DNA of 64,000 nucleotides from Schmidtea polychroa. Lineage: Eukaryota. The notes under the pieces were generated by a model. It was not told the DNA's origin. It made no database searches and worked only from the letters and a program-made list of their open reading frames with translations. The position numbers were made by a program, and so were the translations under genes. The stretch covers positions 7,440,001-7,504,000 of the forward strand of contig CM097888.1 of the NCBI GenBank assembly GCA_044892525.1, written 5' to 3'. Position 1 is the stretch's first letter; every line of letters begins with the position of its first letter. Below, in pieces: positions 27,855-60,712 of this stretch.

Positions 27855-28610
27855 TCACATGAGGCCCGACTAACGAAAAATAGAGGACCCGTGAGGGTAG
27901 AAAACCGGGTTGACTGTCAAGTCGACCAGGCGGAGGACACCCCGCGTATGATCCCGCTAGAGCTTTCTATTGAGTGGTAGGTAAAGATTAAAATTTTTCA
28001 GAGCGCTTAATTGTGTTAAATAGTTAATTGTACAGATAGGAAAAAAAGTCTCGGGAAGAATAAGGGTAGATAGAATAGTAAATTTGAGAAGTAAACCTAA
28101 TGTGTCAGAATGAAGATAGGCTTAAACCACACATTATAGACCAAAATAATAATACAAGCCTAACTTACGACAAATTTCATCGAAGAGAGATAAGAATCAT
28201 CGCGCGAAAACCCGTCTATTGCGCCAACAACGGGTTAAAACCGAATTGGCCACTCTGGCTCCTCCACCAACCACACAAGTTATCATACAGACCTTCACTG
28301 TACGTAGTCGTCGATCCAGGAGTTGGTTGATATTCCATGATGTAAGGCATTCTAACGGCAGTCCTGATTGTTGAGGAGTGTATGAGTCAAGTAGTCGGAT
28401 TAAGTCAGCTCACCTTTGCTCATGCATTCTGCCGCTATATACAATACCCACGCGGGTTGGTTGCTTTAAATAATCTTGTTAGGCGTTCTAGGCTTTTCCA
28501 CCAGGATCGAATACTTCACCCTTAGCGAAGACTCTATAGGAGAGCCTAGGTTTAATCAAATCGAGTCAGCACAACTAGTTAACAGCCATCACAACTAGTT
28601 AACACCCAAT
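27855..28610 (+). mobile_element. Fragment of the LTR-like ORF/RNA-motif family (copy E7)
   Basis: Contains CGGCAGTCC...AGTAGT...GCTCACCT and CACCCTTAG, shared with 36686-36900 and 1523-1585, and GGACCCGTGAGG, the reverse complement of part of the 33318-33452 motif. Confidence 0.55.
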
Positions 28611-28984
28611 TAACATAACACTAAATTATTAATAACCAACCAACTAAATTATTGATAAAATGATAAATTATTTTAAAATTTTCTATTACAATAAATAAAT
28701 CGAATTTCAATTCATTTTATTTTCAAGTATACACCTATCTTTAGTTTTACACGGTAGATACGTTCTGACAAAACCTTGTAAATCATTTTTATATGGGAAA
28801 ACCGTGTAAAACTACAACGACTATAAATAAGTTTTATAGATATTTATTGACCACAAAATATGACTAATACACTAAAACATCATTTAAATCATAGAAAAAA
28901 TAAAAATAGTTAAATTTATTTTTAAAAAAAACAAAAAACATATTTCATAAACAAATATCAATTCATCATTAGATTCTTATTCTA

Positions 28985-32404: not shown

Positions 32405-35147
32405 CAGTCTTCTTCATGCTAGAAATTGTATTAATAATAATGTTGGGCTGAATCGAAAACGTAAATTTAGAAAATAAGGAAAATAGGGCAAATAAGATAG
32501 TAAAGAAAATAAGAATAAAATAAACAATTTAAGAATAAAACAGAATAAGAAATAAGAAAAACAATAATTAAAAAATAAGAATTAAAACAAAATAATAAAA
32601 CAAGAAAATTAAAAATAAGAAATAAATTAACAGCCAAAATAATGTAAAATATAATAAGTATTGAAGAAATTAAAAGAATAAATAAAAAATATAATAGAAA
32701 TAAGAAAAGCAAGAAGATATAATCAAAAAACAGGAAAAAGAAATTAAATTAACTAAAATAAGCGGTACTCAATTTTGATTGGTCCGCATAAACGCCAAAT
32801 TACTATATAAGGAAATGTAAAACTCACTTAAGTTAATGTTAATTTCAACCTACTATAGGTAAGCCGAATTCAAAAATTATGAATGTTAATTTCAACCTAC
32901 TATAGGAAATGCACTAGTGGACAACAACAACTTACCGGAGAACAAAACCGACTACAGCGTACTCATCAACAAGCACACGGGACGACTAATTCCGAATTAG
33001 ACAATTCATTTAACGGACTCAGCGAGATTTTTCGATTCAGCCTAAACAATTCGATACCATAGTAAGGAGTATTTCATTTGTTCATTTACTTATTCTTTTC
33101 AAAAGTTAAAAGTAATGTTAAATATTAGAAATTAAACAACTTAGTTTAACTCTCTTCATTTGGTTCCCTTTAAAGTTTCAACCATGATAATGATTTAACA
33201 TGTAAATGTAATGGAGAACAATAAATGATTTCATTTTCAGCAATTTTTATGATTTACTTTATGAGTTCAGAATTTTATGAGTTAGTATGATATATATTAA
33301 ACTTCGATGCGAGTAACGTGGAGTTGAGGAACTTCATGTCATGGTGTGAGGTGCCTTCGGGAGCTCCGCCGGTGGACATGAGGTTTTTCAATCACGCAGC
33401 TTGATTGGGCCGAAATGTGGGGGTTTCCTCACGGGTCCAATCGCTGAAGATTGACTTAAAATTTGATTTGAATGATGAAAAGTGGTTTATAGTAGTGGTT
33501 CTAAGTCTATAATGAACACAAATTCTAAAGTGATTGAGGTGAAAGCCATATCTACCACGATCTTATATCGCCAATTACTTTCGCGAGGAACCGTACGATC
33601 CTGAGTCTAAACCTTCAATAGTATAGTCGTAATCCGTTTGAGTTTTGGCTCTAACATCTTACCAAATTCTTCATTCATATTCGTTTGTTCACTAATAAGA
33701 CGGGTTCGAGGTTTTCAGATTCATCTTATGACATTTAAAAATTATAACACGTAAATGACATTTATCAAAAATAGAGTAAAAACGTAAAATCCATAATGGT
33801 AATAGATTTTATTCAATACATTGTAAAACAAATGAATACTTATAGTATAGTTCTCCTATTACGAACTGTTCGAAATTTCCGCACCTGAATCAAGAATGAT
33901 AGGTATCGTCTAGACGAGACAAGTAGACCCTCCGTCGCGTAAAATATCCTATGTTAAGGAAAAATCCGAGCATCAGTAATAAACTCCAATTTTCTTCTAA
34001 GCTACTTGAGGATCCATAGACGAGAATAGAATGCTAATAGGTTTGTCTAGGCAACGCGATCAATTTTTATCAATAAAATGCTAAGGCAATTTGAATCGTA
34101 AAGGTCAAAATTCCAATGTTGCAAACAGTCGAAAGTAACCGATGACTATAGAACATTGAAAGATTTGTGTTCACCACGAGATAGTGATAAAACTCCAGTT
34201 GATTACTGTTGCACGCGACGGTGAGAAAAAATCCAATGTGATGAATGTGAATAATCACAAGGTGGCTGAGAAATACACACGATGGTGAATAAGAATGACA
34301 CAGTGAATGCATGGCTAACCACAGTAATCCGTATTCCACATGACGTATCTGGCATAGATTCTAACATCATGACTGATAACGAAGGGACATCGATTAACCG
34401 TCATAGTAGCTCCATGAGTAGCAGATGATGGCTCTCTTAGATTGTGTGTTGCAATGCGATCAACGAAAGATAACCGCATGCAGTAAAATTACATAAGCCA
34501 CTCATTAAGAAATTTTGAATGAATTAATTTAAATGATAACAGAATGGCTAAATTAATAATTATAGACAATTATGATTTGAATTAAATGATTTAAAGGGTA
34601 ACAGAATTACTAAGTGAATAATTGTAGACAAGTATAATTAAATAATTTAGACGATAACGGACTTGCTAAATTAATTAGGGATAATCAGGACATGCTAACC
34701 AACGATGGAAAACTTAAACCAAGCGCTAATAATAGAATCGGGATTTTTAAGCCTGAGCGTTACAAATGGTCCTGAACCTTGTTCTATTAAATATCATAGA
34801 TAACAATTGCGATCTTAACTCTAATATCATAGCTAACCTTAGAGAAATATTGACTGAATAAGCTACTAACCATCAGAATCGTTAACGGAATTTTATAACG
34901 AATCATTTTCTTAAAATCTTATAAATATCGGAAATAGAAATTCAAGATATTCTCGATAAGAATTAAAAATATTGTTTAACTAATAATTGGTGTCAGTCTA
35001 ATTGATAATTAAGCACATTTTAATAATGAAAAACTTAGTTTACCTAATCAAAGGTATTTTTAAACTGTACTCAAAGGTAGCGAACGATATTCAGGTATGT
35101 TTCGGGAACGATTAATTTGGGGTAATATGCGGTACTGTATATTAAGG

Positions 35148-35342
35148 CAGTGGTTCTCAAACTTTTTTGATCACGACCCAAATTTTTGACATTTAATGCC
35201 AAAAATTTTATTGCGACCCACATGACAAAGATTAAATAAATTTAAAAGGCTTAAACTTCCAAAATTTATATTTGTAGATCTTTCCATAAGTCATCGCGAC
35301 CCACCAAAAATTCTTTCGCGACCCATAGTTTGAGAAACACTG
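35148..35342. mobile_element. hAT (Charlie-like) MITE, 195 bp, nested in E2
   Basis: TIR CAGTGGTTCTCAAACT (15/16 match), perfect 8-bp TSD TATTAAGG. Confidence 0.93.
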
Positions 35343-35655
35343 TATTAAGGGGTCGGTAGTAATAGCTGGTTTGGAAAACTTTAGAGAAATTTAGGTAGCA
35401 ATCAATCAATTAATTCAGGATATTGAGTATGTATCCGTCAATACCATGATATATGTATAGTAAGACCAGTAATTTTTCTGGCAAATGATTATTTTACTAA
35501 TACCTTAATCCAGGGGAAGGTCTTTTCTTTTCTCTCATCTATTCCAAACGAGTTATCATCGAATGTCCGATAGTAACCCACCCCACACTCTAACAACGAT
35601 TTCGTGAATATAATATATTGTAGTAATCATGGTTCCTTCTGTTTAGCTATTCAAA

Positions 35656-36405
35656 ATGTTGCCATCGACTAAACCCACTTTGTGTCCTTGCTTCTCTTGC
35701 TCGGACAAAAATACAATTATCAAAGATCTGCAAGCCCAGATCGGGCGGTATAAAAAGAAGATAGATGAGTTGGAGGGCACTTGGTTTAGCCCCACTCAGA
35801 TGAAAGAAACACGGAAAAAACTGTATCGCAGCGAGCACTGTCGGGACGCTCTAATCTCTGAGAGCCGTGCCCAAAGAAGTTTGATCAAAGAGCAGTCCGA
35901 AGCGCTGCATAAAGTCTATCTCCAGGCAGCCACCACACGAAAGATTGTCCAAATTCCCATTAAAGAAGCCGACAACCTTTTTCCGCCCCATCACGATGTT
36001 TCTTCAAAATCGTCACCTCCCGTCAAGAGACCTTGTCCGGAGTGTGTCGAAACGGAACTTTCTCCCAAACGGTCAAACGTCATATTTATAGGTTCTAGCA
36101 AGGCGCCGACCGTTAGTTCATCAACATCAAGCATGTCTCAGCAAGTCTCAACTGCCGGAAAACCTAAACGCAAACAGCTATCGTGTGCAGAGCGTAAGAA
36201 AAGGCAACGTGAGCGAACATCTGCTAAGCCGAGTAAAACTCCAACGGACAACCCAGTCAGCAATAATACTCATCCTACAGTCGTAGATTTGACAGTCGTG
36301 GTCCCAGGGCGAATCATCTCCGCCGCTGGTGTGACCTGGGAGGAGAATGCCTCCGAATTCTTCGGCTTGGAAGAGCTCTTAGCAGTCACCGAATGGGAAA
36401 AATGA
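35656..36405 (+). CDS. 249-aa element-encoded protein of unknown function (Cys cluster, coiled coil, basic NLS-like segment, SIM-like VVDLT, acidic/aromatic tail)
   Basis: Intact ATG-to-TGA ORF, GC-richer than its surroundings; decayed homologues at 21175, 37727-38110 and about 57055; splice-acceptor-like TTCCTTCTGTTTAG 9 nt upstream. Confidence 0.75.
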   Translation: MLPSTKPTLCPCFSCSDKNTIIKDLQAQIGRYKKKIDELEGTWFSPTQMKETRKKLYRSEHCRDALISESRAQRSLIKEQSEALHKVYLQAATTRKIVQIPIKEADNLFPPHHDVSSKSSPPVKRPCPECVETELSPKRSNVIFIGSSKAPTVSSSTSSMSQQVSTAGKPKRKQLSCAERKKRQRERTSAKPSKTPTDNPVSNNTHPTVVDLTVVVPGRIISAAGVTWEENASEFFGLEELLAVTEWEK

Positions 36406-37361
36406 GGTCCCACAGTGAGATATTCGACAGATCTTATGAACTACAATCCATGTGTGTCTCCTCCTTCCTTATGTAAATACATTTGTAGTATGTAGTCTTC
36501 TGAGCAATTGTTGGGATAATACATTTTTATTTTTCCCTTTTGTTATGATGTCTTCTTTGTAAGGAATTAGTAACGATATTTAAATATATGAAAGTTTGCT
36601 CACTCTGGGAGAGTATCCGTCAATTTGCATTCGGCGTAATACCCAGCGGAGGGTCTGATAGCGTTGTTAGACGTAAGTCCTTCCATCGGCAGTCCGGTGT
36701 GGAAAGTCGAGGCCTCAGCAAGGAGTAGTTTTAAGGCAGAAGCTCACCTGCTTGCTGGCGTCTCGCCTGCATAGTGCAGTACCAACGTGAAGTAATTCAC
36801 GGGCACTATGTTGGAGTGCAAATTATGTGGGGTTCCTCTCCGAGTTGAACAGGTGAAGACGAATTCCATGCGAGATGGACAATCAACCCTTAGGCCAGCC
36901 ACTAATGTAGAGCAGTCAACCGAGTGGTACCCCAACAATAACTAAATGAAAATAAAGAATATTTAAACAAATTGACCAATAATAATCGTAATCAAATTGT
37001 ATCAAACATAAATATAAAATTTTATTTGGATATTTTAACAAACATTAACATTATTTCAGACTGTAGACTAGGCACTTTAAATATTAATTATAGGATTTAA
37101 AGATCTAATCAGCAACGCTTCATAAGTTACTCGTTCCCATTAATTACTCAAATCTTTCGCCATAATCCTAAAATCTCTGATTTCTCAGTTTCATAAAAAG
37201 CTAAATATTTATTGTCTTTAGTTTAAATTTGATTGATAGTTATCAAATCTAATACCATTCCAAGAGTTTCTACTAATAAATGAATGGGTTGTTTGTTTTA
37301 ACTCAGATTGTAAGCTTATGCAAATATTGATAATGAGTTATTGAATATTAAGGGAAACAAT

Positions 37362-39340
37362 TGATGGGTTACAGGTAATCCACAATTTCGCTTTCGTGCT
37401 GTTTCCAGCGTAACCCAGAATACAAAAATGCTGTGTACCGCTCGATACCCGTTGAGTGATCGTTGGAACTGTATCAAGTGGGCGAGTGGCAACGAAAAGT
37501 GAGCATATCTTTATATACCTTTATATACTGTATACGGCAAGCACTCGTGCGGGTTCGCGGACTACCAATAGAAGGCCTACATCCGACTTTCATTTAGGTC
37601 CCCTTTCCGGTGATCGCTTGTACCTATGATTCGGCTCTTATTATAATATCACTGCTTAATCAACGAAAATAACTGTCTAAATACATGAATAGATTTATTT
37701 AAAGGAAATCAAGGTTATACAGATATTTACCACTGTACCTTGGTTGTGATCAATTTTCGATGCATCTTGAGTCGTGCCCGTTTGGCTTTTCCAGGGCATT
37801 TCTTTTTCTGGTTTACTGTTCGTCGTTTGGCAATTTCCATCATCTCTGTCGTCATTGATCGAATCTGTTTGCTCAATTCTTGGTCAATGACATACTGATT
37901 TACTTGCATCTCCAGCTGTTGCAATTGGAGCCGGAGCGCTTTCATCTCAACTTGATTCTGCGTACTTTGGAGTTTTAGTTATTGTATCTGTTTCAGCTTC
38001 TTCTGCATCTCTATGAAACTAAACCAGGTGTCGTCGATCTCCCCGTACCGTCCCTTGAACTTGATAATCCGGCGCCGTTGCTACCCCACTTGGACCCCAA
38101 ATTTTCCATTAATTGGATCGCTGAAAGAGAAACAAGAACTTTAATTTGTAAAGGTTAAGTCTTTTAATTTAATTCCGAAATAAGATGTTTCGTATTTGCG
38201 AGAACTCGTCCGTCCTTATCGCTCCCCTTCGCTGACGGCATCCAAATCCGACCCTATTTCCCATTATTATCTAAATCGAACTTAAATATAACTGAGTTCG
38301 GTTGTTAATTTTCGCTTTATATGGTTTACACAGTGCATTAAAACGTCACTCAGGGTTATATAAAATTTATTAGCTTGTAGTTAGGGTGGCTGTGGGCCAA
38401 AAATGGTAGATGTGTAGGGTTGGGATGGATCTCATTTATCTAAAAAAGAATAGCAATAAACAACGATTCCACTCAAGCCTGCATCTCTGTAGCTGTGATA
38501 GAATCAAAAAAGATTGATATAAAAAAGTTCATAATCAATTAATAAATAAAACTGTCCTTACTCAGAATTTTTCTCAAGCTAGATCAAAATAAAAAATTTT
38601 GGCATAAGAGTGATTTGTAAACGAAATGTATCGGTATATATACCCTAATTTTGGTGTGCCAGTATGTGTACGTGCATTGGTTCAGTAAAACAAATTCGAA
38701 TTATTTTAATTCTAGTTAATTTTGGATCTTAATTTTTATCGATTTTAATGGTGATTTTTTGTAAATTAGTATTAATTTTATTTTCTAATTTTGATTTTTG
38801 ATTTTTTTATTAAATTTGCCACCATGATGGATATGGGTGTTTCTAGAACATTCCATGATGTTTTCTGATATTTTTAATATAAAATTATAATTTTTCTAAA
38901 TTTTCTGTTGGTTCTTTATACATTTTATTAATTTTAATACTTAAATGTTTTCTTTTGTTGACTTTGTAAAGTTGTTCGGCGGACATGATAGATTTCGCCA
39001 TTTTATGGACTGTTCTGGGTTTTTACTTATTTTTGCTTTAATTTTGTTTCTCACTTGCTTTTTGTTGTTATTTTATGGAAATCGTTTTGATTTCTGTTCT
39101 CATTTTTTTATTATCGCCATTAATTCTTTACTGGGTTATGTGTTCATGTTGTGTTTGAGTAGGTTTTATGCAATGCTTCTTGGTTTTGTTTGATATTTAT
39201 ATTAATTTGGATTTGTAACCTTTCCTTAGTTGATGTTTTACTATTTCTTATTTTAACTTTACTTAGTGCTTGGGTGTGCATGTTGTGTACGTTTCGTTAC
39301 GATCTCTATACTTGGGCCCTAATTCAGTTTTTGTCCAACA
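37362..39340 (-). mobile_element. TG...CA-bounded element (copy E4), 1979 bp
   Basis: Ends TGATGGG and TCCAACA, perfect 4-bp TSD CAAT; CCAAT at 38676-80 and TATATATA at 38635-42 on the minus strand; ORF; 3' structured motif. Confidence 0.8.
37727..38110 (-). pseudogene. Coiled-coil ORF of E4, homologous to the 35656 ORF, two in-frame stops
   Basis: IIKFKGRYGEIDDTWFSFIEMQKKL versus IIKDLQAQIGRYKKKIDELEGTWFSPTQMKETRKKL; acceptor TTTCTCTTTCAG 11 nt before the ATG. Confidence 0.65.
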
Positions 39341-45291: not shown

Positions 45292-46288
45292 CAGTGGCAG
45301 ACAAAGGTTAGTAGCACTACGTATTATTTATTACCATTTATTACAATACTTTTAGTAAATATTTATCAAATGTTTGTGATGCAATATAATCTAAACATAG
45401 AATTTAGAAAAAACAATTGCAGCAATATTTAAGCTTGATTTCTCTTGTTTGTCCTTATATATTTATATTTTTCTGTCTCTGCTTACTGGTCAAAAACAAG
45501 AACTTTCAAACTTTAAGGTCTCAAATAGTGATCTTGAAGAAGGAAAACTACTCTGAGAGGTAAATAACATTGAAATTAGGAGTACATTCATCAACTGTTA
45601 CTCGTACAGTTTCTAGATATTATTATCCTGGGATTTATTCATCAAAACATCGCTGTGGAAGGCTTACTGTTACTACCGAACGAGATCATTTTGACTGCTA
45701 TTAGCAGTACTGGAACATGTGGATTTTGGATCATGCACAACAATTAACTCCATTCTATATGTTGATATACTGTCATATCATCTCCTACCATACATAGCAT
45801 ATCATAACTTCACCCAGCTACTTCATGGCAGAGCAACATACCAATCGGGACAGGTTGTGCAAAGCTGGCTCATGAAACGCAATAATCCTATGGTGGCTCA
45901 TGAAACGCAATAATCCTATGGTGGCTCATTAAACGCAATAATCCTATGGTGGCTCATTAAACGCAATAATCCTATCGTGGCTCCTCTAGCCTGGGTCATC
46001 ACCAGGTCTAAAACCAAATGAAGAAAAAGTTTCAGCCAAGAAACCATAATCTATGCTTGATTTAAAACAGAAGATACATGATGTATGGTCAACAGAAATC
46101 ACCCCTGCTTACTGCGGCAGGTCAGTGAACTATATGCCAGCAAGAATTGTTACTGTCATCAAGACTAAAGATTACAAACTAAGTACCGAAAACTGCTTTA
46201 ATATGTTTATTAACTTTTGAATTGATTGTTAACTCTTATTTAATAGAATTTTAAATTGGAATAAGTGCTAGTAATCTTTTTGCCACTA
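45292..46288 (+). mobile_element. Decayed Tc1-type transposon
   Basis: Imperfect TIRs CAGTGGCAGACAAAGGTTAGTAGCACT; fragments RCGRLTVTTERD, INSILYVDIL, SSPGLKPNE (from SPDLNPIE) and VNYMPARIVTVIKTK. Confidence 0.8.
45866..45983. repeat. 28-bp tandem repeat x4 inside the Tc1 relic
   Basis: TGGCTCAT(G/T)AAACGCAATAATCCTATGG repeated. Confidence 0.95.
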
Positions 46289-48447: not shown

Positions 48448-50976
48448 TAGGGCTTGCAATACCGGGATCCCGGTATTACCGACATTTTTAATACCGTTCA
48501 ATACCGGTATTAATGACCACTTAATACCGGTATCCGGTATTAATTTTTTTTGCTGTAAGTTAACATTCATATCATTTTTATTTTTTATAAGTAATTAGCA
48601 TATGTTTAGGTGTTGTCATGTTTAAAGATTAAATCTAATTTTGAAATTTACTGAAGTAATTTGTTTTTTTTACATTAAGAAAGAGCCTTTTTGTACGTTA
48701 ATTTTTCTAATACTAAAAAAATACTAAAAAAGACACAAATTCACATAGCAAGTCGTTTCTATGGGAAATTATTGTTTTCTATTTTTCCAAATTTTCAATA
48801 TTGAAGCTATGTTTTTTATTTTATAAAGAATAGTTAGTTAGTTCAGTTGTAAAGTTTTTGAAAATTTAGAGAATTGTGTTTATGTATAATATAAAAGTTA
48901 AAAAATATTTAAAATCATAATTATAATTAATAATCATTAATTCAATTGATAAATAGCAGATAGATAAAGGTAAGTTAAAAGTGTGAAAATTAATTATTGT
49001 ATAAGTAAAATTTTTATCTTCTATATATTTATATAGATAGCGGAGCTATCATAGCTCACTGCTGCGGGTTTTTTAAAAATTAAAAATAATAAATAATAAT
49101 AAAGAATAGCAAGATTTCTGCCGTTTTAATAAGTGGGTACAAATATTCAAAAAATTTTGTAATTTACTTAAAGTTAAAACGCTGTTTTTTTAGCCATGGA
49201 AAACTATGTTTTTGAGGGAAAATCAGCTGATGAAAATTCCGTATGGTTCTATTTTCTTCGTGAGAAAAAGGGACAAATTTCAAAATGTAAGAAGTGTAAC
49301 AAAGAAATAAAGACGCAAGGTAGTACAAGTGTGTTGCCCTCGTTGAAGAAAGGCTTAAATTATTCCAAGTTTCTTTAAATAAACACATTGTGTGCATTAC
49401 AACTGATGGTGCATCTTTCATGACCAAAGTTGGAAAGTTGATTTGTGCAAGGAAACAACTTTGCTTAGTTCACGGAATTCAATTGGCTGTCATTAAGGTT
49501 TTATATATAAATATGATACACCAAAATTTAGAAAATGAACATTCTAATTGTAACGAAAATGATATACAAGTATACCAGTATACAAGTGATGAAAATGATA
49601 GTGATCTTGATGATAATAGTTTTTCCATACTTCAAGAAAACAATGCAATTGACTGTTTAATTATTCATGAACAGATAGGTCCATTGATTAAAAAATAAGA
49701 AAGGTTGTGAAGCTATTCAGACGTTCGCCAATGAAAAATGATAAAGCTTTACAGAAACATGTTAAAGAACAATTTGGAAAGGAACTGAATTTAATTCTAG
49801 ATTCTAAAACACGTTGGAATAGCTTACTTGCCATGCTAAAACGCTTTGTCCAGTTAAAGAACTGCATACAAAAGGCTTTGATTGATTTAAATTTAAATGC
49901 CGAAATATCATTTTCGGAAATTGATTTTTCTTTAGCATCATCAGTTATTTCAGTTCTTCTTCCAATCAAATTAACTGTTGAAGCTTGTTGTCGTCAAGAT
50001 GCTACTCTTCTTAGCGCAGATGCAGCTTTACTATTTATGTTTAATCAATTGACAGAACAGAATACTGCTTTAAGTAATTAATTCAAAGAAGAGCTAATTA
50101 TTCGTATAAAACAAAGGCGTACTGATTTATCGAGTCTACTACAATACCTGCACAATCCTACTGAATCAGCAGATGACGACCAAAATGAAATTTTTAATCG
50201 AATTAACAACGCAACAATTATAAAAATAATTATAAATTTATTGGAACGCTTATATACTATCGATGTCATCGATATTGAAAACATAGGAGCCTCTTCCATC
50301 GACGTTTCTGAGATTTTCTGCTGATTCTGAGCCAGAAATTCTAAGTTCGATGACAATGAAAGAAAAACTAGAAATGGCAATTTCCAAGAAAGTTAATGTG
50401 ATGAATTTCAAAAACGATGAATTCTAAAATACTTTATAAAGTTATAAAACAGGAACTAGCATACTTCGAAGTAGAATATATTAGAGGAAAATATCTTCAA
50501 CTAGTATATGACTGCCTTATGTCCATACCACCAACTAGCGTCGAGTCCAAAAGAGCCTTTTCAGTAGCAGGGCTGTTGTGCACAAAAATTCGATCCAGCT
50601 TAAGCGACAAAACTCTTGATAGTTTAACATTGTTGAGGGCATATTTTAAAGGCAAATCACAACAATAGGAGTCCTATTATAGGACATAGGACTTATTATT
50701 CTTATATATTATTAATTATATTATTACTCTTTTTTTATTTTATATTTTTTTTGTCTTTTGTGGCACTTTAAAAAAAAAGTTTATTGTTTCGAATTATTCA
50801 TTATTGAATTAAATATTTTATTTTCTTTATAAATATTTTTTTTCTATTTTTTGCGGTGTAGTTTTGCTTTTTTTGTTTTTTCTTAAATACCGGTATTAAT
50901 ACCGGGATCCCGGTATTAATATAATGAAATACCGAAATACCGGTTTTGAAAATTTGATCCGGTATTGCAAGCCCTA
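48448..50976 (+). mobile_element. hAT DNA transposon with intact ends
   Basis: Perfect 18-bp TIR TAGGGCTTGCAATACCGG, 8-bp TSD GTTAGAAT/GTTAAAAT (7/8), subterminal ACCGGGATCCCGGT palindromes at both ends. Confidence 0.95.
49196..50668 (+). pseudogene. hAT transposase, deleted and frameshifted
   Basis: BED finger (VWFYF...KCKKC), ITTDGAS, CLVH, DSKTRWNS and SIPPTSVESKRAFS across several frames. Confidence 0.92.
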
Positions 50977-56779: not shown

Positions 56780-58023
56780 AACTAATTTTGGTCTTTCAGA
56801 AATGAAAGGTTCAAAACTCCTGATGACAACGTTATCGCATTCTTATGCGACAAGGGGTTAGGTCCTCTTAAACGGTCTGATTAGTAGTTCCTTTTATAAT
56901 TAAATTAATCTTGTTAATATATATTATTATTTAACATACTCTTTTCTATTTACAAAAGAATTTTTTTGAATGGTTTTTGGAATTATTATTTTTAATTGTA
57001 TTTTGTTGTTTAATTAAATTAATTTTTTGTTTAACAATATAATTACTCGAGAATATGCGGGTAGACGGTAAAAAAGCTAAGGACCCGAATAAAGAAGCTT
57101 GGGGTCGATGCTGAGAAATGGATCACTTCTGGTTTAATTACGAGGACATGAAACATTTACAACAAATACAGCAATTACAAACCCAGATTGACCAGGATCA
57201 AGTAGAGTTAAGAGCACTGAAGATAAAGATGAGACAAATAGAGACCCAGATCCACTAGCGGGAGATTGATACTTATGTTGATGAATCAGATTGTGCCTCT
57301 AACACAGACAGAGCTTGCTCACGCGAGGTGCTCAAACTGTCGAGTGGCGGAACCAGAACGAAAAATGACCATATTAGGCCGTAGTTGTAAACCCCGGAAA
57401 GATGTGCGCGCAGAGGCTCAAATCCTGATATATTCTAATATTATAAATGTGTTATTGAAATGAAATAGTTTAGTTAGTCTTACGATACACATATTTATAA
57501 ACTCGTATAATCTATAAAAATGCATGATAATCGATGAATACTAACATTTAGCACGAACAGAACTGTAATCCCTACAACGGGAGCATTGGATTGCCGGGGA
57601 GTTGACGAAAGAAGTGAATTTAAGACTAAGGCGTCTCCGAGAACCGGCGGGTAGTAGAAATGGAATATCGATAGAACTCACATTCTGTATGTTATAATTT
57701 AGCAAATAAAGTTTATTTAGCGATTACTTTTCTTAATCAGTCGAGTATTTTAGAAAAATGGGTTAATCAATAGGGGACCAAAATTAAAGACAGACAAATA
57801 CCTTCTAACGGTGCTACGTGAAACCACTCAAATACTAAACGATTATAGTGTACAATAGTATGCTCATTTTCGCGAGTATTCACCCATTCGACACAGTTCC
57901 AATTTTGATTTTGTCAACGGGTTTCGTATGGTATATTGTATTCTGGGTTACGCTGGAAACAGCACAAAGTGATTCTATTCAATTATTCTTGTCAACTTGA
58001 AAGCTTTGCTAACTAGTAAACAG
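56780..58023 (+). mobile_element. Truncated LTR-like element (copy E5) with decayed coiled-coil ORF (about 57055-57380)
   Basis: DHFWFNYEDMKHLQQIQQLQTQIDQDQVELRALK aligns with the E4 ORF; 57860-57967 is the reverse complement of the 3' motif at 14465-14620 and 37362-37505. Confidence 0.65.
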
Positions 58024-59272: not shown

Positions 59273-59731
59273 ATCCTTTTTAAAGACCTACCAGTGAAAG
59301 TGGATGAGAATGAGTGCCAAATCAATATCCAGTTATCCAGTCTGGTAATCAAAAGAGAATCTGGTGTTAAAATCGCTGGTTTCGTGCTAGCAGAAATAAA
59401 ACTTAAGTTATATTGTGGAAGAATTAGGCTTCAAATTAGTCATGGTTCAAATTGTGTTTAGATAGACCTTTCAATGGTAGCCTGTGAAACCGAGGTGCTT
59501 CCGGACAATTGTAATCCTGAAGTAGAAGCTCACTTTTTATGGACGATGGTTTCCTCATGTCATAGTTCCAATTTTGACCCACGACAGGTGTCGGATATGA
59601 CAATCTCATATGCTATGGTGATGTGGCAACAAAGTTTAGGCAATCTCTGGAAGTCGGTTTTTAAACGAGAAATTCTCGTAGATAACACAGTTGTGCTATC
59701 GAACGATTACAACAAATTTTTCACGTCTTAA
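59273..59731 (+). other. About 150-codon frame of unknown product split by one TAG (59459)
   Basis: Track ORFs 59249-59461 and 59474-59731 are in the same frame; no recognisable domain. Confidence 0.35.
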
Positions 59732-60244
59732 ATTTTTCTAAAATTTTAAATTCTTTATTGATTATTTTAAAACTTAAAAAAATTATTCTTTCGCAAATAT
59801 TTTCCTACTCAATTTCTTAAAATTTTCAGTGCAACAATTTTTCTTTAATTTGAGCTTATCGGACGATTTTTGACACGGCTTATGTGTCATTGAAACTTCC
59901 TCGGCCTTATGAGATTAAATCCCAACAAATACGTTATATAAAAAATTTGATTTGCCAACTATATCCGCAAAACTAATAAATTGAGTTATATCATAAAGCA
60001 TTAGAGAAATTATTTAGAAAAATTATTTCAAAAAATTATATCAAAAAATTAATATTTTATTTTTCAAAAACAGTATAATTTGTTGATAGTAATTAAATCT
60101 AATAAAAATTTTAATGTATACCAGTTTGTTTAAATTTGTGGTAAATGTTTAGTTGCTTTATAAATTTTTAAATAAGAATTTTATTTTTATTTGTTAATTT
60201 GTTAATTACAAAATTTTGTCATTTAAAGTTTGCTAATTTTAGAA

Positions 60245-60712
60245 ATGGGATCCGCTGCACAAAGACGCTTAATTAGAGACCTGAAACGTCTTCAGGACGA
60301 TCCACCAGCTGGTGTATGTGGTGCTCCAATTGATGACAATATCATGTACTGGAATGCAGTTATTTTTGGTCCAGATGGAACTCCATTTGAAGATGGGACT
60401 TTTAATTTGAGATTAGAGTTTTCAGAAGAATATCCAAATAAACCACCTCGAGTAGTGTTTACCTCTAAAATGTTCCACCCTAATGTATATGCGGATGGAA
60501 GTATTTGTCTTGATATTCTTGGAAATACCTGGAGTCCCACATATGACGTAATTGCTATACTTACATCAATTCAATCACTATTAGATGAACCAAATCCAAA
60601 TTCTCCAGCAAATAGTGTTGCTGCTCAATTATATACAGAAAATAGGAGAGAATATGAAAAGCGTGTTAAAGAATGTGTTGAAGAAAGCTGGTTGGAGAAA
60701 GATGATCTCTAA
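60245..60712 (+). CDS. UBE2A: Ubiquitin-conjugating enzyme E2, RAD6/UBE2A orthologue (155 aa)
   Basis: [17 protein letters not shown]...GTPFEDGTF...YPNKPP...[16 protein letters not shown]...[10 protein letters not shown]; catalytic Cys intact; ATG at 60245; no coding introns. Confidence 0.97.

Follow-up and report, generated by a model that had tools for sequence, protein, structure and literature searches.

The hairpin motif analysed here is the third domain of a four-domain RNA that makes up the last ~250-280 nt of a group of long terminal repeats (LTRs), and its carriers are solo LTRs of an LTR retrotransposon clade. The window, i.e., the whole stretch of 64,000 nt that was analysed, consists of AT-rich animal-type DNA with transposon remnants and microsatellites. 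That a selected RNA structure is present in these LTRs we regard as almost certain. Regarding its function, we tentatively put first a structured, regulated splice acceptor that might sort spliced from genomic RNA, since no other reading accounts for three separate conserved words that follow one another in the correct order and at the correct distances; we consider it possible rather than probable. The sequence-only reading of this DNA had recognised the motif itself. The assignment of its carriers to solo LTRs, its place as one of four domains, and the match of its letters to splicing signals and to the start of the LTR go beyond that reading.

Solo LTRs as carriers of the RNA

The carriers and their relatives with the features used below are:

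94 to 1754, + strand: element A2, LTR-like, 1661 nt, its 12-nt start identical to that of A1, TATA at 665-670, without target duplication
14465 to 16202, − strand: element B2, solo-LTR-like, 1738 nt, one of the 4 bases of its target duplication mismatched, no domain 1 left
19114 to 21460, + strand: element A3, an A-family LTR of which the 5′ part is present, including a broken ORF copy, and the structured 3′ end is missing
32441 to 36937, + strand: element A1, solo-LTR-like, 4497 nt, TGTTGG...CCAACA, 4-bp target duplication in A/T-rich context
32441 to 32451, + strand: start of the A1 LTR, complementary to the domain 3 loop plus closing bases, the variable loop base staying unpaired
35656 to 36405, + strand: LTR-borne ORF of A1, 249 aa, with predicted helices 16-40 and 46-98, a basic helix 177-189, and an acidic-hydrophobic C-terminal helix
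37362 to 39340, − strand: element B1, solo-LTR-like, 1979 nt, 4-bp target duplication, TATA near 38640 common to B2

All four elements with defined ends start with TGTTGG and finish with CCAACA or CCAYCA, their TG...CA ends forming a short inverted repeat of 6-7 bp, and their lengths range from 1.7 to 4.5 kb. Target duplications are exact over 4 bp in A1 and B1, carry one mismatch in B2, and are lacking in A2; the ends of the further homologues B3, C1, and G1 could not be fixed from the sequence. The alignment of B1 with B2 begins at base 1 and reaches the last base; it covers the first 800 nt, including the TATA block (73% identity over 274 nt), and the last 140 nt, whereas the middle does not align. 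Families A and B give no BLAST alignment with each other except via the structured end. Neither an internal region nor a primer-binding site nor a polypurine tract was found in the window, and no primer-binding site was found behind the LTR end in contigs of four sets.

Several other identities were considered for these elements. BEL/Pao elements produce target duplications of 5-6 bp, whereas one of 4 bp points to the gypsy type; the duplications of A1 and B1, which measure 4 bp, do not fit BEL/Pao and rather point to a gypsy-type element. Penelope, DIRS, and DNA-transposon identities were set aside by the TG...CA ends, the 6-7-bp inverted repeats, and the 4-bp duplications. For the end of family B, a 7-bp stem followed by ACCA, a tRNA-like reading was considered; since this stem carries an ACA overhang in family A, an integrase end is the simpler explanation.

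A G+C-rich hairpin at 55-93 (+) directly precedes A2, which is not flanked by a target duplication. Possibly, A2 is the 3′ LTR of a longer element that extends beyond the window, and it would then be without a plain polypurine tract. Another G+C-rich block is common to A1 (33318-33452) and A3 (19885-20010, +), with 67% identity over 140 nt amid diverged surroundings, and is possibly another structured or promoter element. In G1, a 15-nt tandem duplication at 28570-28615 (+) creates three possible TTAACA ends. An AATAAA is located 113-230 nt before the loop and upstream of domain 1 in B1, B2, B3, and C1, i.e., in four of seven homologues; it would place a poly(A) site downstream of the ORF and ahead of the structured RNA, although the word is common in the DNA of the window.

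Apart from these LTRs, the window contains an IS630/Tc1-type transposon at 2862-4063 (−) with a DDE_3 ORF of 358 aa and terminal inverted repeats of 43 nt, a hAT transposase-like remnant at 6480-6830 (+) with a weak Pfam match, and minisatellites at 4645-5337, 8999-9604, and 45838-46005 with units of ~172, 81, and 28 nt. By eye, we take 49324-50081 (+) for another hAT transposase-like remnant, the intronless 161-aa ORF at 60230-60712 (+) for a relative of the ubiquitin-conjugating enzyme Rad6/UBC2, and a short fragment at 11720-11870 (+), which adjoins an uncertain motif copy at 11902-11932, for HSP90-like.

Domains, covariation, and controls

The four domains, as they occur in A1, and the remaining copies of domain 3 are:

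36670 to 36695, + strand: domain 1 in A1, a short stem, the donor-like GTAAG (GT at 36673), and a hairpin with a T-loop-like loop of 7 nt (UUxxAxx)
36709 to 36764, + strand: domain 2 in A1, a long covarying stem with an AGU/GCU helix and a CAC bulge on the 3′ side; branch-like A at 36746
36769 to 36811, + strand: domain 3 in A1, the motif under study, a 9-bp stem, the loop AGUACCAA at 36778-36785, a 6-bp hairpin with a GUAA tetraloop, G at 36802, and the other strand of the stem
36828 to 36937, + strand: domain 4 in A1, a terminal stem-loop starting with UGG and stopping 3 nt short of the LTR end
1603 to 1645, + strand: domain 3 in A2, loop at 1612-1619; donor-like GT at 1509, branch-like A at 1581
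14543 to 14581, − strand: domain 3 in B2, loop at 14574-14567
37442 to 37478, − strand: domain 3 in B1, inner stem decayed, loop at 37470-37463; donor-like GT at 37580, branch-like A at 37500
57889 to 57926, + strand: domain 3 in B3, decayed, loop at 57895-57902
59558 to 59602, + strand: domain 3 in homologue C1 (59455-59714), TAG replacing CAG with the partner changed to match; inner stem diverged
28339 to 28450, + strand: homologue G1, in which domains 1 and 2 are intact and domain 3 (loop) is decayed; nhmmer E 0.004
11902 to 11932, − strand: uncertain extra copy of domain 3 with six of eight loop bases, the inner hairpin, the G, and three outer pairs; without domain 1; 17-21 bits

Sequences and coordinates of five motif copies had been given correctly before, and the layout of outer stem, 8-nt loop, inner hairpin, single G, and outer stem is complete in the copies at 36769-36811 (+), 1603-1645 (+), and 14543-14581 (−), with 9+6, 9+6, and 7+6 base pairs in outer and inner stems, respectively. 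In these same three copies the minimum-energy fold is the drawn layout (z −2.3, −2.3, and −1.4), but it is not in 37442 (−), with z −0.8, or in 57889 (+), with z −0.4. The two latter copies, called weaker at first sight, are decayed ones: the inner stem of 37442 lacks three bases that are present in 16 sister contigs from sequencing run X2, and 57889 is mismatched. The three homologues that close the list above are additional, a profile search having extended the homology to 59455-59714 (C1) and 28339-28615 (G1). C1 is recovered by nhmmer at E 1.3e-6 but obtains only 8.4 bits with the covariance model; its loop is kept and is closed by a U-A pair. Where ends are defined, the motif is situated 127, 109, 80, and 78 nt from the 3′ end of its element, close to that end as had been proposed.

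The other domains display conserved features of their own. The loop of domain 1 consists of 7 nt with U, U, and A at positions 1, 2, and 5 fixed in six of six copies, which is the signature of a T-loop, and GUAAG precedes the hairpin in three copies. Fifteen of the 21 predicted pairs of domains 1 and 2 show two-sided changes, while the AGU/GCU helix of domain 2 is nearly fixed. Domain 4 begins with UGG and stops 3 nt before the LTR end in each of the four elements with defined ends. GNRA tetraloops occur in three domains, and they cap hairpins in A1, A2, B1, B2, and B3; because of these tetraloops, the T-loop-like hairpin, and the keeping of G-U pairs, RNA is favoured over single-stranded DNA as the form in which the structure acts.

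Stems that differ in sequence yet still pair had been reported for this motif, and the five-copy alignment bears this out, with 91% of cells paired and 10 of 16 pairs changed on both sides. None of 500 shuffles reached this level and slid controls were paired at 30-46%; the structure came from RNAalifold on those same sequences, and that origin together with kinship inflates the result. Between families, the test is cleaner. The copies at 36769 and 1603 are identical at only 24 of 49 positions, yet all 15 pairs form in both and nine are changed on both sides. When a covariance model is built from these two copies alone, it scores 14543 at 40.5 bits, 37442 at 22.4, 11902 at 21.1, and 57889 at 14.8, compared with a best control score of 16.2 bits in 48.5 kb of control DNA. 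Thus, of the three copies kept out of the model, 14543 and 37442 rise above the control, but 57889 stays below it. Pairing and model test between families are the cleanest test of the fold, and the earlier claim that a selected RNA structure exists close to the 3′ end of the element has found support.

It is the combination of loop and stems that is rare. The octamer alone is not, with 10 matches in the window vs 7.0 expected, and the motif shape without the loop sequence occurs one to seven times per shuffled window. Octamer plus both stems is found three times in the window and not once in 200 block shuffles, a pattern derived from the copies themselves, so that its significance is overstated. 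Folding of whole regions gives modest z-scores (−0.7 to −2.6), and the global minimum-energy fold is without domain 3 as drawn in three of five regions. RNAalifold on a long alignment of six copies finds domains 1 and 2 but not domain 3, because domain 3 is poorly aligned there.

Within the LTR, the conserved blocks stand out by being shared much more widely than the remainder. In run X2, they reach a summed contig depth of 18,000-65,000 vs 25-36 for contigs matching the window exactly, contig depth not being equal to copy number, and the blocks of domains 2 and 4 are also deep in a second organism. Domain 3 has a lower depth (from 39,000 down to 9,400 in family A, 1,600 in family B), as expected of diverging stems. 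Between A1 and B1, a 90-nt repeat at 37060-37150 has very high contig depth in X2 and in run X6 of the second organism.

The initial impression that no known family is involved agrees with an Rfam search of the whole window, which at E up to 5 yields only two AT-repeat artefacts. Pattern scans of viral contigs gave 0 and 0 matches; the same kind of scan in metagenomes gave 12 stretches, none with a flanking motif, which were taken as chance and reused as control DNA. In an atlas comparison the best score was 0.82 with no family, and a word-indexed protein search returned 0 of 634 candidates. A literature search found no description of such a motif, which subscription papers, Repbase, or supplements could contain; the portions available of three papers on flatworm LTR elements describe none (PMC11410931, PMC8532177, PMC4558846).

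Splicing signals, LTR ends, and an LTR-borne protein

If domain 3 acts as a structured, deliberately weak 3′ splice site, the bulge of domain 2 would present the branch-like CUCAC, the paired stretch between domains 2 and 3 would be the pyrimidine tract, and the internal loop would display the YAG. The donor would be the GUAAG in domain 1 or one near the upstream TATA. Use of this splice would cut away part of the leader, which is long and contains an upstream ORF, and produce a message, whereas RNA in which it is not used would remain at full length for packaging and copying. The invariant UNCCAA behind the AG might then be a control handle, either pairing with the first bases of the LTR or being bound by an LTR-encoded basic protein.

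Splice-site-like words occur in the copies in this order. YAG marks the 5′ edge of the loop in six of seven homologues, TAG for CAG being tolerated in C1 along with a change of the partner base. CUCAY, which is branch-like by a human consensus that may not be the host's, is present in all seven, its A lying 30-33 nt before the G of the AG; human branch points conform to yUnAy, and 83% of clones have them 21-34 nt before the end of the intron (excerpt of PMC2367711). From the branch word to the AG, 68% of the bases are pyrimidines vs 49% in the surroundings, and there are 3 AGs vs 12.7 expected, counts that come from homologous copies and are not independent. About 105 nt upstream, four of the six copies that keep domain 1 have a donor-like GTAAG (three copies) or GTAGG (one copy), which implies introns of 103-112 nt. 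We put the probability that chance mimics all these signals in order at roughly 1e-3 to 1e-4, a rough estimate that was not computed. Some observations speak against a splice site. The predicted intron joint is absent among the 15 listed of 24 joints from four contig sets, none of which is recorded as RNA, and a donor is missing at the homologous place in two of six copies. A1 has a competing TAG 6 nt upstream of the conserved CAG, and in B2 and B3 a GAG closely follows the branch word. Furthermore, the pyrimidine tract is almost wholly base-paired, so that its recognition would be hindered. Splicing alone also leaves the six invariant bases on the exon side unexplained.

These exon-side bases are those that could contact the other end of the LTR. 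Loop and closing bases are complementary to the first 10-11 bases of the LTR itself, leaving out the variable N. As an 11-mer, they find in the LTR start the best partner of the whole LTR in three of four elements and the second best in the fourth; 11 of 272 control 11-mers did equally well, and the loop is the only position common to all four elements. The eight unpaired loop bases alone are unremarkable, 4-7% of windows being as good, and the pairing needs the bases that close the stem. We estimate the chance probability of this pairing, judged on four LTR starts from two families, at a few per cent. Both the splicing and the end-pairing idea were formed after inspecting these few copies.

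Priming or packaging, suggested for the motif from the outset, survives as a rival reading, although we think it unlikely to be the principal one. Domains 3 and 4 might start reverse transcription or packaging, and a pairing of the loop with the start of U3 could circularise the genomic RNA and select full-length molecules, as the CYC5/CYC3 contact does in Ty1. The fixed place of the motif, 78-127 nt from the LTR end, is in favour of it, and so is the terminal stem of domain 4, which stops 3 nt short of the end in four of four elements and resembles the U5 inverted-repeat stem that reportedly exists in retroviruses and Tf1. The complementarity to the LTR start would explain why only N varies. 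Both Ty1 and Ty3 need end-to-end RNA contacts (excerpt of PMC4974528), and self-priming is treated in PMC4600332 (in the part available). However, the window contains neither a tRNA gene nor any of the internal sequences named above with which a partner tRNA could be compared, the pairing rests on four LTR starts from two families, and the branch-, donor-, and YAG-like words are left unaccounted for. Neither the ribozyme also proposed at the outset nor epsilon-like priming found positive support. We judge it very unlikely that the RNA is a ribozyme that cleaves itself or forms a branch on its own, or that reverse transcriptase copies an epsilon-like bulge of it into a short GTTGG primer. Loop bases that are invariant within covarying stems and a bulged A in domain 2 would suit catalysis, and the CCAAC of the loop equals the LTR end of family A; the bulge sequence is equal to the putative start of the minus strand in A1 and A2 and has one mismatch to it in B1 and B2. 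But family B LTRs end with CCAYCA while their loop still reads CCAAC, so that a copied primer would mismatch. Rfam gave no ribozyme or epsilon match at E up to 5 (hammerhead, twister, pistol, hatchet, and HDV-like included), the copies have no hammerhead core in common, and both the termini and the target duplications are of the kind seen in ordinary elements that use an integrase. An element for internal ribosome entry or reinitiation, which would let gag-pol be translated despite a preceding leader of 1-4 kb that carries an upstream ORF, seems just as improbable. Retroelement leaders with internal ribosome entry are known, and one would be in line with the long ORF-carrying leader and with a fold of several domains, T-loop-like and GNRA loops included, that lies shortly before the expected gag start. 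No Rfam IRES matches, though, neither a pseudoknot nor a 40S-binding motif was identified, and the gag start is outside the window. It might finally be argued that unrelated hairpins or neutral remnants were chosen by eye, as the shape alone is common, the octamer occurs at chance level, and copies are few. The copies are, however, homologous and embedded in homologous flanks, and covariation, cross-family recovery, and blocks shared far beyond the rest of the LTR have largely refuted this reading, for which we see hardly any room.

A response element for a protein encoded in the LTR is the remaining rival, and its basis is the A1 ORF, which defines an unnamed protein family with eight database relatives (E 1.6e-7 to 3e-4). 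Five of the eight have an NxRRRERRR-type motif, and one has a weak Pfam REV match (E 0.0013, 19.1 bits, under the cut-off of 22). The predicted structure of the A1 protein, a coiled-coil protein, has a mean pLDDT of 63 and contains a hydrophobic C-terminal helix (238-248), which by eye we take to fit the pattern of an export signal and equally well an acidic activation domain. Six of the eight relatives come from gene models in which host domains unrelated to the family are fused to it, which would be expected if such LTRs lie in introns and gene prediction takes them for exons; PDB matches of the relatives came from these fused host domains and were discarded as irrelevant. In viral contigs, none of 22 candidates for ORF-related loci was confirmed. 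Family B has a broken coiled-coil ORF with a basic tail in B1 (~38074-37727, −) and a broken homologue of it in B3 (~57115-57384, +).

Such a protein could export the RNA in the manner of Rev or Rex, or activate in the manner of Tat, by binding the asymmetric loop with its arginine-rich helix and without any role of splicing; in our opinion this is improbable as the sole function. Besides the arginine-rich runs and the REV match of the relatives, the predicted order of long helices, basic helix, and hydrophobic C-terminal helix is that of Rev-like proteins (excerpt of PMC5568270), Rev binds asymmetric internal loops (excerpt of PMC4488727), and the ORF of B1 likewise ends in a basic run. Yet equally strong basic runs are found in 25 of 281 random stretches of 800 nt and may be mere nuclear signals, and the basic helix of A1 is less arginine-rich than those of its relatives. 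A fold search found nothing at E 0.001, and homology between the ORFs of families A and B is weak (E 0.028) in one comparison and absent in another. Rev sites are purine-rich, which the loop of domain 3 is not, and known targets are situated in env or U3. In the available parts of PMC5568270, PMC3856414, and PMC4488727, the RNA targets of Rev-like proteins are placed in env or the LTR.

A regulated splice acceptor is ranked before priming or packaging, and the latter before a pure protein response element, combinations of them being possible. One such combination, to which we give only a slight chance in its entirety, would be an RNA control of the complex-retrovirus style in an invertebrate LTR. 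The acceptor of domain 3 would be free in the 5′ LTR, whereas in the 3′ LTR the transcribed start of U3 would pair across CAG-UNCCAAC, so that splicing could act on the 5′ leader but would leave the 3′ copy intact. Strand transfer would use the 80-130 nt that follow the AG as its repeat, so that the long LTR with its intron and ORF would be rebuilt in each cycle, and the LTR-encoded arginine-rich protein would bind the structure and govern unspliced RNA. A precedent for position-dependent masking is the foamy virus, whose splice donor is masked only in the 3′ LTR (excerpt of PMC3694450).

Significance and comparison with known systems

Structured LTR ends are already a known kind, and the RNA described here matches no Rfam family. 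Except in yeast and retroviruses, the RNA signals that LTR retrotransposons use have mostly been presumed without being defined, and here a compact, covarying four-domain RNA is kept across LTR families that have little else in common. Its very many copies, partly common to a second organism, offer hundreds of natural variants for structure inference, and the isolated 280 nt are directly testable. If the splice-switch or the Rev-like reading is true, a regulation of the complex-retrovirus type would exist in an invertebrate retrotransposon, and the upkeep of multi-kb, ORF-bearing LTRs would be explained; if the RNA is a priming or packaging signal only, it still is an undescribed RNA family for Rfam.

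The hosts and sizes of these elements recall Burro/GYPSM1, i.e., giant gypsy-like planarian elements with an LTR total >5 kb (excerpt of PMC6431247), with which they share an AT-rich planarian-like host, a multi-kb LTR (4.5 kb in A1), and accessory ORFs. The elements described here are without an internal region, and the text available for Burro describes neither an LTR RNA structure nor an LTR-borne ORF (PMC6431247). The size of A1 fits Burro, which is no test of membership.

With the hepadnaviral epsilon, which consists of a lower stem, a 5′ bulge, an upper stem, and an unpaired base on the 3′ side, the motif has the layout in common, and the likeness seen earlier is one of shape only. In contrast to epsilon, the motif has an 8-nt loop, a variable apical loop, no Rfam match, and integrase-type ends, and the loop of family B mismatches the 3′ terminus of its LTR, unlike an epsilon/DR1 pair.

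Closer in position are the structured R/U5 leaders of retroviruses and Tf1, of Ty1 with its 5′ pseudoknot and CYC5/CYC3, and of Ty3 with its bipartite primer site, all of them cis-acting folds at the 3′ end of the LTR, beside the primer-binding site, with a possible contact between both RNA ends. Compared with these, the RNA described here shows no sequence or Rfam similarity, it has four domains, its putative partner is the U3 terminus itself, and its loops stay invariant between LTR families whose other sequence gives no alignment.

As in the foamy virus LTR, where the donor and 13 adjacent U3 bases control polyadenylation, a splicing signal would be located in an LTR and its access could depend on the presence of U3 upstream (excerpt of PMC3694450); in the LTRs of the window, the site is acceptor-like, its partner is 1.5-4.3 kb away, and both are only predicted. 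The Rev, Rex, Rec, and Rem systems have been described for lenti-, delta-, and betaretroviruses (excerpts of PMC5568270, PMC3856414, PMC4488727). They resemble the present case in that a small, predicted helical protein with a putative arginine-rich motif, followed by a hydrophobic helix, is encoded beside a multi-domain LTR RNA with asymmetric loops, binding and export being predictions here, and they differ in that the ORF described here lies inside the LTR of an invertebrate element and the RNA is placed at the 3′ end of that LTR.
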